Assembly: GCF_048403405.1 (NCBI RefSeq)
Contig: NZ_CP183129.1
Source: Escherichia coli
GTDB lineage: Bacteria > Pseudomonadota > Gammaproteobacteria > Enterobacterales > Enterobacteriaceae
Strand: one strand, 5' to 3'
Length of the DNA: 64,000 nt
Below are positions 33,524 to 34,859 of this stretch, piece after piece. The stretch's first letter is position 1. Every line of letters begins with the position of its first letter. The position numbers and the translations under genes were made by a program. The notes beneath the pieces were generated by a model that saw only the letters and a list, made by a program, of their open reading frames with translations, was not told the DNA's origin and made no database searches.

Positions 33524-34471
33524 TCAAGCATTCAGGATGGCTAGCGCTAAGCTCCTAAACCTGGAGTAAACCTCATCCCATGTGATCTTTCGCTCTCCAT
33601 ACACCATTGGCGAAACAAACTGCTGATAGCGCATCTGGTAGAGAGGATTGTTCGCCAACTCATCCAGTCCCATTTTTAGCTCATCAACTGGAGACGCGCA
33701 AAACTGCGGGTACTGGTTGCCGTAACGCTGAATGTCCTGCTCAATAGTTTGTTGAACAAAATCAACGAGCAGACTCATATCAACATGACTCGTCTCAACA
33801 ATACAGTTTGTATCGTAGATATGACGTACCAGCGATGCATCATCAAATCGCTCAACATCTCGCACAACTGCCGCAGTACGACGTAACATCGCCACCAGCT
33901 TTTCAGCCTGTGTGCTAATGATAGTTGCGCATGGAAACGCTGAAACAATAGCCGCTTTTCCCGTGATCCCTGTTACCAGTGAATGAATATCCCGTAATTC
34001 AGAAGGCTCCAGTAACTTCGCTTCCATCAATTCCAGCCGGATAAAAGGACGCAAACAAGGTGCCTGCACCACTCGCTGTGGATAACGAACAGGTATGTCA
34101 TTATAACGATATTCATCCCGCGTCACTTTTGGGTAATCATCATCAAAATTGAACACACCCGATGAAGCTATTGCACTGGAAACTGCCTGAACAATTTCTT
34201 TACGGGTATTTTTTCGCTGAGTGCGGGAAAGTGCCTGAAATGCATCCTTAGGCACCAGTTTGATATCCACATCTTCCGACATGCGATTAAGTGCGACACC
34301 TGATTTTGCCAGAGCGGTTCCTCCGGCAAACACCAATTGATGAGTATCGAACACCAGAGGTTTAAGCAATTGCAAAAGCTCAACGATATAGTGATCTTTT
34401 TCCACAATTGCGACAGACTCAATACCAAGCGCGTCAGCCACTTCAGAAAAAAGAGTGGTTAAATCATCCAT
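33524..34471 (-). CDS. AbiEii/AbiGii-family nucleotidyltransferase toxin (DUF1814-like)
   Basis: 315-aa protein with the nucleotidyltransferase motif FAGGTALAKSG...SEDVDIKL near the N-terminus. Confidence 0.75.
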   Translation of the reverse strand: MDDLTTLFSEVADALGIESVAIVEKDHYIVELLQLLKPLVFDTHQLVFAGGTALAKSGVALNRMSEDVDIKLVPKDAFQALSRTQRKNTRKEIVQAVSSAIASSGVFNFDDDYPKVTRDEYRYNDIPVRYPQRVVQAPCLRPFIRLELMEAKLLEPSELRDIHSLVTGITGKAAIVSAFPCATIISTQAEKLVAMLRRTAAVVRDVERFDDASLVRHIYDTNCIVETSHVDMSLLVDFVQQTIEQDIQRYGNQYPQFCASPVDELKMGLDELANNPLYQMRYQQFVSPMVYGERKITWDEVYSRFRSLALAILNA

Positions 34472-34859
34472 TTAATCTGCTGTTCCCTACAGATAATACG
34501 CGTTTAAAACGCCGGGGGGTTTTTATCTCGGGTGAAGCTGGGATCTGCGTAGAAGTACCGCTATTGTATGCCTGCGTTGCGCCAGCAAAACGATAGCGTA
34601 CTTTCAGGCGTTCCAGCGTTTCGACAATCACCGCTGAAGAGCCTCCGGGAGCCGCTGGCATTACCTTGCCTGTAATACCGTTCCGCCGTGCTTTGGTATA
34701 CACGCCATAACCAACCTTCAACAGTTGCCCTTCCCTGACAAGCTCGCGCAATACCCGACCAACCTGATCGTAGCCTGCAATATCTTTAAAGTCGTCACGA
34801 GTGAATACGTAACGTTTAGAACGTTTCAGTCGTGACTGAATGCGTGCTTTTATCGTCAT
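34464..34859 (-). CDS. Putative cognate antitoxin/transcriptional regulator of the AbiE-like pair
   Basis: ~131-aa ORF from the internal ATG (MTIKARIQS...) with a strong AGGAGG SD 7 nt upstream; 3' end overlaps the toxin start by 8 nt. The ORF track extends the start to 34928. Confidence 0.55.
   Translation of the reverse strand: MTIKARIQSRLKRSKRYVFTRDDFKDIAGYDQVGRVLRELVREGQLLKVGYGVYTKARRNGITGKVMPAAPGGSSAVIVETLERLKVRYRFAGATQAYNSGTSTQIPASPEIKTPRRFKRVLSVGNSRLNG

Follow-up and report, generated by a model that had tools for sequence, protein, structure and literature searches.

A probable SanaTA-type AbiE toxin-antitoxin operon at the end of a CP4-like island in Escherichia coli

SanaTA, from a plasmid of Shewanella sp. 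ANA-3 (NC_008573.1; locus L040 in our comparison), belongs to a branch of the AbiE toxin-antitoxin systems that has short antitoxins. It reportedly protects against phage T7 without gene 4.5: Lon degrades the antitoxin SanaA, and T7 Gp4.5 blocks Lon (Sberro et al. 2013, in the passages that cite it in bioRxiv 10.64898/2026.01.19.700257 and PMC8230891). Here we analyze a related pair of genes from Escherichia coli, at positions 33,524 to 34,859 of a 64,000-nucleotide stretch of contig NZ_CP183129.1 (assembly GCF_048403405.1). We call this whole stretch the window. The pair comprises an abiEii-type toxin gene and, upstream of it, a short abiEi-type antitoxin gene. We think that it is probably an intact AbiE toxin-antitoxin and abortive-infection operon of the SanaTA subtype, with activities like those of its characterized relatives, carried as the end cargo of a CP4-like island. 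The analysis itself yielded two intact genes, their families, conserved catalytic motifs, a predicted fold like that of the MenT toxins, conserved pairing, and conserved tandem repeats at the promoter.

Several other relatives have been characterized. In Streptococcus agalactiae, AbiEii transfers pyrimidines to tRNA and auto-phosphorylates on Thr65 in an antitoxin-dependent manner (bioRxiv 10.64898/2026.01.19.700257). The MenT toxins of Mycobacterium tuberculosis modify the acceptor stem of tRNA (PMC7450476); MenT3 is phosphorylated on Ser78, and MenA3/MenT3 exemplifies antitoxin-dependent phosphorylation of the toxin, or type VII (PMC7205606). AbiE from Serratia perturbs tRNA pools (PMC7725324). 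The same family is represented in E. coli CFT073 by c3681/c3682 (AbiEi/AbiEii), which adjoins the group 2 capsule locus (PMC12488582), and deletion of this allele changes the sensitivity to several BASEL phages (PMC12488582).

The pair in the window is of a known and routinely annotated kind: RefSeq names its products "nucleotidyl transferase AbiEii/AbiGii toxin family protein" and "DUF6088 family protein." Because RefSeq and tools of the PADLOC type already call the pair, our analysis adds nothing to genome annotation. Its value is modest and lies in a native E. coli representative of the SanaTA-type branch. This would be a convenient system for asking whether type VII auto-phosphorylation on Ser65 holds without the helix bundle of the antitoxin, which E. 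coli tRNAs are targeted, and whether an operator of tandem direct repeats implies different autoregulation than the inverted repeats bound by S. agalactiae AbiEi and Rv2827c.

The two proteins and their relatives

The toxin matches the AbiEii profile from PADLOC (PDLC02297) over residues 1-312 (E = 1.1e-126) and Pfam PF08843 over residues 38-303 (i-E = 8.6e-30). NCBIfam has no family for it or for the antitoxin. As in the AbiE systems of S. agalactiae and Lactococcus (PMC3985639, 6Y8Q), this DUF1814 protein has GG, 15 residues, and DxD, with R63, D67, and D69 at the same numbers; mutating these residues of S. agalactiae AbiEii abolished toxicity (PMC3985639). The full motif is F48-A-G50-G51-T-A-L54 and then S65-E-D67-V-D69-I70, which fits the pattern hG[G/S]x15DhD for the pol-beta-type motifs I and II of the family (Dy et al. 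2014, PMC3985639), plus the family-specific arginine (R63). In S. agalactiae AbiEii, motif III is a lysine in a hydrophobic context with one or more downstream arginines (K173/R180; PMC3985639), which corresponds to K191-L-V-A-M-L-R197-R198 in the window. Motif IV of the family is a "+DxxD" acidic pentad (D192 in S. agalactiae). The literal string is absent from the window toxin, where the local consensus is R-D-x-E-R-x-D-D, but D211 (with D210 alongside) lies 19-20 residues past the lysine of motif III, which is the spacing from K173 to D192.

We aligned the toxin with 35 homologs, which were 27% to 73% identical. All of the 35 columns that were invariant are retained in the window toxin. Besides the GG and DxD residues and R63, they include K25, D26, T52, K56, M64, S65, E66, V68, I70, K71, E147, K191, R197, R198, D211, R216, H217, Y219, and D220.

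The AF2 model of the toxin (pLDDT 90.8) is predicted to have the bilobed nucleotidyltransferase fold of MenT and AbiEii proteins. When we compared it to the PDB with Foldseek, the nine best matches were all to MenT4 (6Y56) or MenT3/TglT (E = 5.9e-9 to 3.2e-6, TM 0.55-0.68, probability 1.00). These were the only hits at E ≤ 0.001; OAS1 and TENT5 came next, with E of at least 1.7e-3. The similarity to MenT3 (Rv1045) and MenT4 (Rv2826c) includes a serine phospho-acceptor inside S-E-D-x-D, although the sequences are just 13-20% identical. When the PDB was searched by sequence, with single sequences and with family profiles, no solved structure was significantly related to either protein; MenT4 came out as the best relevant hit, at E = 0.18. 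Profile, motifs, and predicted fold together support placing the toxin in the AbiEii/DUF1814 (PF08843) family. A preliminary description of this DNA, made from the sequence alone, had proposed a DUF1814-type nucleotidyltransferase with GGTAL...SEDVDI; the motifs are there, and the coordinates it gave are exact.

The antitoxin matches the PADLOC profile for AbiEi (PDLC02229, 131 positions) from end to end (residues 1-130, E = 1.7e-53), as well as DUF6088 (2.9e-07) and AbiEi_4 (4.4e-05) from Pfam, so that the profile searches proposed as a check in the preliminary description were positive for both genes, well above the level of chance. In the AF2 model (pLDDT 94), residues 3-59 form a winged helix-turn-helix, and the assignment of this N-terminal half is secure. 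Beyond it, the model has a long helix (73-84), a short helix (94-99), and short strands. In canonical AbiEi, the C-terminal antitoxicity domain consists of a helix, a row of four strands, and a six-helix bundle (PMC7319586). The window antitoxin ends at residue 131 and has no six-helix bundle, while S. agalactiae AbiEi has ~195 residues and carries the bundle in its C-terminal domain, and the M. tuberculosis antitoxins (MenA3, Rv1044, and MenA4, Rv2827c) are two-domain proteins of 207-293 residues. With Foldseek, the first PDB match of the model was Rv2827c (MenA4; 1ZEL; TM 0.58 over 126 columns) and the second was S. agalactiae AbiEi (6Y8Q), both with E of 0.02-0.03; we found no sequence-level match to either structure. 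For the C-terminal half, the relation to AbiEi is suggested by these structural matches, by genomic pairing, and by the treatment of SanaA in the literature. The AbiEi partner of the preliminary description is thus of the right family (AbiEi/DUF6088), but judging from the model it is the short SanaA form rather than the canonical two-domain protein.

The antitoxin family comprises 748 clusters at 50% identity, with a usual length of 130-145 residues. Its conserved features are the wing G50-Y-G52-x-Y54, the loop S-T-Q105-I/V-P107 (after the helix at 94-99), and R120, and all of the invariant residues are present in the window antitoxin. We inspected six longer relatives as candidates for full-length AbiEi, but one was a tandem duplication, one had a second copy of the N-terminal part, and four had unrelated tails. 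The open reading frame (ORF) of the window antitoxin is open to 34928, which would allow a protein of 154 residues. This is unlikely because its start would lie inside the promoter repeats, the RefSeq protein has 131 residues, and 101 of 120 close homologs have exactly 131; we prefer the ATG at 34859. Many database entries for the 131-residue antitoxin (homologs P0007, P0009, P0028, and others) bear the legacy name "S-adenosylhomocysteine hydrolase," which is unsupported here.

Both proteins show full-length, collinear homology to SanaTA. The toxins are 44% identical over residues 1-313 (E = 1e-86) and share an identical R-M-S65-E-D-V-D-I-K motif, including the Ser65 of the published description. 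The antitoxins are 45% identical over residues 7-129 (E = 8e-32), and SanaA is short as well (136 residues, as published). In both systems the antitoxin gene comes first and is tightly coupled to the toxin gene, with an overlap of 4 nt in SanaTA and 8 nt here. The two also share tandem same-orientation repeats, 23 nt apart, upstream of the antitoxin gene. They differ in that SanaTA is borne by a plasmid and the window pair is cargo of a chromosomal island, and the effect on phage that we propose for the latter is drawn from SanaTA.

We scanned species-representative genomes for the toxin and obtained 79 loci. In 77 of these, the toxin match is directly preceded by a homolog of the antitoxin, which agrees with the operon order proposed in the preliminary description. 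In all 58 full-length comparisons, the antitoxin was more conserved than the toxin (means of 59% and 50%). Of 74 loci, 19 had a disrupted toxin gene and just 2 a disrupted antitoxin gene. This excess is larger than gene length would explain (one-sided binomial p = 0.03), although some of the 19 may be artefacts of start extrapolation; 11 of them have two alignment segments in different frames. This bias is the pattern expected of a harmful gene that is kept in check by its partner.

Within E. coli, the allele in the window is found in 159 of 5426 complete genomes, and in 133 of these the coverage is at least 80% (about 2.5%). Some allele of the family is present in 817 complete genomes (about 15%). 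Six complete genomes contain an identical segment of 4.1 kb, and one plasmid (NZ_AP023207.1, 93.8 kb) carries it in full. The 3' end of the toxin gene (33524-33710) also has a match in about 20 plasmids of E. coli, NZ_CP086387.1 and NZ_AP027686.1 among them: an unannotated 187-nt fragment with ~98% identity.

Operon layout and a putative direct-repeat operator

The toxin and antitoxin genes share 8 nt (ATGGATGA; Table 1). As in S. agalactiae, the operon is bicistronic with the winged-helix antitoxin first. Translation of the toxin is probably coupled to that of the antitoxin. In related loci, the genes overlap by 4-11 nt or are separated by 1-2 nt: the overlap is 8 nt in 19 loci, 11 nt in 15, and 4 nt in 3, and there is a gap of 1 or 2 nt in 28. 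The preliminary description noted a small overlapping ORF with a strong Shine-Dalgarno (SD) sequence. The overlap is as described, and the strong SD belongs to the antitoxin gene (GGAGG), with a GGAG-type SD at the equivalent place in most related loci; the toxin gene has a weak SD only. The promoter/terminator scan called no terminator 3' of the toxin gene.

Upstream of the antitoxin gene are two 18-nt repeats in the same orientation as the genes (AATGTCGTATKTTTGCTA). They are identical at 17 of 18 positions and their spacing is 23 nt. The distal copy is AATGTCGTATGTTTGCTA and the proximal copy is AATGTCGTATTTTTGCTA, whose 3' end forms a weak extended -10-like element (TGCTACTCT). No sigma-70 consensus promoter was called by the scan ahead of the antitoxin gene, so we infer the -10 assignment. 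The proximal copy in other genera ends with TGCTATGAT, TGCTATAAT, or TGCTATATT. The core TGYSKTAT is found in the orientation of the genes in the upstream regions of 70 of 74 related loci and is reversed in just 4, as compared to 0.035 sites per locus in mononucleotide shuffles. There are at least two copies in the same orientation in 49 of the 74 loci, and they are spaced by 23 nt 31 times and by 24 nt 13 times. This tandem arrangement is seen across Enterobacterales, Alteromonadales, and Legionella.

We propose that the tandem repeats are the likely operator of AbiEi. Since the proximal copy overlaps the extended -10-like element, occupancy of this copy would occlude RNA polymerase. The characterized AbiEi proteins bind inverted repeats instead (PMC3985639, PMC7319586): the S. 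agalactiae operator is a pair of 23-bp inverted repeats, and the binding of Rv2827c to four inverted repeats shows negative cooperativity. We found no 23-bp inverted repeat here but rather direct repeats with a 23-nt period. As a candidate for an inverted-repeat operator as in S. agalactiae, the region 34800-35000 offered only a weak palindrome (71%) that lies within the coding sequence.

In SanaTA, the core of the repeats is TGCCGTAT rather than TGTCGTAT as in the window, and the repeats are more distant from the start codon and precede a TATACT -10. We found no antitoxin residue in the winged helix or its recognition helix that tracks the choice between these cores (TGTC versus TGCC variants); the only candidates were two lineage markers in the C-terminal half.

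These patterns lead us to lean, with some reserve, toward a broader proposal. Short SanaA-type antitoxins may use a different operator architecture, with two monomers arranged head-to-tail on tandem direct repeats (RTGTCGTATKTTTGCT, with a 23-24-nt period) and the proximal repeat overlapping an extended -10-like element. This architecture would be conserved from E. coli as far as Legionella, and variant cores would occur in a clade of Vibrio and Shewanella and in two distant metagenome-assembled genomes, one of them from Margulisiibacteriota. It would be linked to an antitoxin that lacks the helix bundle and is more constrained than the toxin, and to a module that recurs as terminal cargo after DUF4942 in CP4-like islands. 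In the AbiE papers that we consulted, we found no description of a direct-repeat operator for the short-antitoxin branch or of the habitual place after DUF4942.

How the pair may act

By analogy to the characterized relatives (MenT1, MenT3, MenT4, S. agalactiae AbiEii, and Serratia AbiE), AbiEii would be a Mg2+-dependent nucleotidyltransferase that extends the 3'-CCA end of tRNA. This would block aminoacylation and translation and lead to reversible growth arrest. The 131-residue AbiEi may bind the toxin and promote its auto-phosphorylation on Ser65, which would switch it off (the logic of type VII systems). The winged helix of AbiEi may bind the two head-to-tail repeats over the extended -10-like element and repress its own operon, and translational coupling through the ATGGATGA overlap may fix the ratio of antitoxin to toxin. 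When a phage shuts off host expression, the labile antitoxin would be lost (through Lon, as reported for SanaA), and the active toxin would arrest translation and abort the infection. Toxicity, the tRNA target, the phosphorylation of Ser65, and phage defence are all ascribed to the window pair from its relatives. Because the antitoxin is short, phosphorylation is the least secure of these steps.

The preliminary description called the pair a type IV system with abortive-infection activity. The AbiE family stands, but the type IV label is contested by the type VII phosphorylation of MenA3/MenT3 and S. agalactiae AbiE, and Ser65, at the position of the phospho-acceptor Thr65 of S. agalactiae, is invariant here.

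The addiction logic of such a pair would stabilize the island too. It is possible, if rather less likely than a role in defence, that the pair serves chiefly for addiction, maintaining the genomic island by post-segregational killing, without useful phage defence in E. coli. The pair lies at the very end of the island, directly after DUF4942, and it has an equivalent position in other Enterobacterales (among them Hafnia, Pectobacterium, Rouxiella, and Photorhabdus) and in the pheV island by kpsF in E. coli ABU 83972. Also, AbiE is reported to stabilize an integrative and conjugative element in Streptococcus suis (PMC11062541), AbiE from S. agalactiae gave E. coli no protection from 32 phages (bioRxiv 10.64898/2026.01.19.700257), and island maintenance was raised as an alternative by the authors of PMC12488582. 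On the other hand, deletion of the CFT073 allele alters phage sensitivity (PMC12488582). The integrase of the island in the window is already a pseudogene, so loss by excision is unlikely to be a current selective pressure. The roles in addiction and defence are not exclusive.

The allele in ABU 83972 allows a comparison within the species; we equate it with c3681/c3682 by their shared position beside kpsF, not by direct comparison to the CFT073 sequence. In ABU 83972, too, a CP4-like island ends with DUF4942, DUF6088, and AbiEii in this order, and the antitoxin, also of 131 residues, is 77% identical to that of the window. The allele is different (~65% nucleotide identity), and the island is the pheV island, beside kpsF, instead of beside nanS. 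Only the proximal copy of the operator is well preserved. The toxin gene is frameshifted (4741-5674 of locus L082) and the antitoxin gene is intact, the same asymmetric decay as in the species representatives.

Because the short antitoxin is without most of the canonical C-terminal domain, we also considered that the toxin might be neutralized chiefly because a labile antitoxin binds it stoichiometrically (similar to type II and controlled by Lon), and not by phosphorylation of Ser65. The reported lability of SanaA to Lon and the blocking of Lon by T7 Gp4.5, in the passages cited above, would fit, as would the stable heterodimer of AbiEi and AbiEii from S. agalactiae and the absence of the helix bundle from our antitoxin model. 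The stronger conservation of the antitoxin in 58 of 58 loci fits an extensive and constrained contact surface. We nevertheless consider this explanation somewhat doubtful. Ser65 is invariant in 35 of 35 aligned toxins, although it lies inside the catalytic motif, so its conservation could serve catalysis. In the model of SanaA:SanaT in a preprint (bioRxiv 10.64898/2026.01.19.700257), a loop of the antitoxin is next to Ser65 of SanaT, and a loop motif (S-T-Q105-I/V-P107) is conserved in the antitoxin family. Antitoxin-dependent phosphorylation remains our preferred mechanism, at the reduced confidence given above.

That the pair is a silent or decaying remnant is very improbable: although toxins of the family are often broken (the 19 of 74 species representatives and ABU 83972), pseudogenes lie nearby (the restriction gene, the island integrase, the GTPase, and IS3), and the -10-like element is weak, both frames are intact and full length relative to the profiles, all invariant residues of both proteins are kept, no damage is seen in the SD, the overlap, or either operator copy, and 134 E. 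coli genomes have the segment at 99-100% identity.

The island and its other genes

Within its CP4-like integrative island, the pair comes last among the cargo genes. Toward nanS, the island has an integrase pseudogene, BREX-1, several small genes, a frameshifted GTPase gene, DUF932, RadC, CbeA/CbtA, DUF4942, and AbiEi/AbiEii. Past the pair come a fragment of a phosphorothioate-dependent restriction gene and an HNH nuclease gene, and then nanS. A backbone order that ends with DUF4942 and then AbiE is shared, in part or whole, by nine other Enterobacterales loci, including those of the four genera named above. We rejected DUF4942 as an obligate third component of the system, because it lies upstream in about nine Enterobacterales loci and is absent from other contexts.

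The defence-island character suggested in the preliminary description is borne out by BREX-1 and by the second toxin-antitoxin pair, CbtA/CbeA, on the same island. The HNH nuclease gene that was said to be next to the pair is ~600 bp from the 3' end of the toxin gene, with the restriction fragment and an ORF for 61 residues in between. AbiE is one more element of a stacked defence island, along with BREX-1, CbtA/CbeA, the HNH nuclease, and the decayed phosphorothioate-dependent nuclease.

Table 1. Coordinates of the AbiE operon, its putative signals, and other features of the window
Feature	Position	Strand	Remarks
HNH gene	32272..32922	-	216 aa; weak matches to type IV methyl-directed restriction
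Phosphorothioate-dependent restriction gene fragment	33002..33244	+	80 aa; matches only the N-terminus (profile positions 2-45 of 284) of NF045808, phosphorothioated-DNA-binding restriction endonucleases; RefSeq pseudogene
61-aa ORF	33301..33486	+	Unannotated; converges on toxin gene; phrog_25874 end to end, E 3.7e-47
abiEii-type toxin gene	33524..34471	-	315-aa DUF1814 nucleotidyltransferase; WP_000342498.1
Short abiEi-type antitoxin gene	34464..34859	-	131 aa, winged-helix, DUF6088/SanaA type; WP_000152741.1
Gene overlap (8 nt)	34464..34471	-	ATGGATGA; antitoxin stop TGA inside toxin codons 2-3; toxin ATG
Shine-Dalgarno GGAGG	34865..34869	-	5 nt before antitoxin ATG (34859-34857)
Extended -10-like element (weak)	34893-34885	-	TGCTACTCT; formed by 3' end of proximal repeat
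Putative operator, promoter-proximal copy	34889..34906	-	AATGTCGTATTTTTGCTA; 3' end in extended -10-like element
Putative operator, promoter-distal copy	34912..34929	-	AATGTCGTATGTTTGCTA; first base is last base of DUF4942 stop TGA (34931-34929)
DUF4942 gene	34929-35783	-	Stop codon abuts distal operator copy; protein hits a PHROG with the annotation DNA methyltransferase (3.8e-15)
CbtA toxin and YeeU/CbeA antitoxin	35874-36581	-	Second toxin-antitoxin pair, upstream of AbiE; standard CP4-like backbone
RadC	36581-37054		After CbtA/CbeA; CP4-like backbone
DUF932 protein	37084-37902		After RadC; CP4-like backbone
GTPase family gene	41633-42645	-	Two adjacent ORFs (184 and 163 aa); frameshifted per RefSeq
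isrN Hfq-binding sRNA	46934-47075	-	Rfam RF01396, 136.9 bits; sole Rfam family in the window at the gathering threshold
BREX-1	48092-63007	-	Complete-looking: brxL, pglZ, hypothetical gene, AAA ATPase, pglX, brxC, DUF1788, DUF1819 (RefSeq names, from the identical segment of strain 4621)

The 61-residue ORF is absent from all related AbiE loci, so we rejected it as a component of the system. It had no tblastn match in the GenBank phage collection. Together, the HNH gene and the NF045808 fragment look like a decayed locus for a modification-dependent nuclease. Further along the island there is a pseudogene of an IS3 transposase, and the integrase, a frameshifted tyrosine integrase, lies beyond BREX-1, just past the end of the window.

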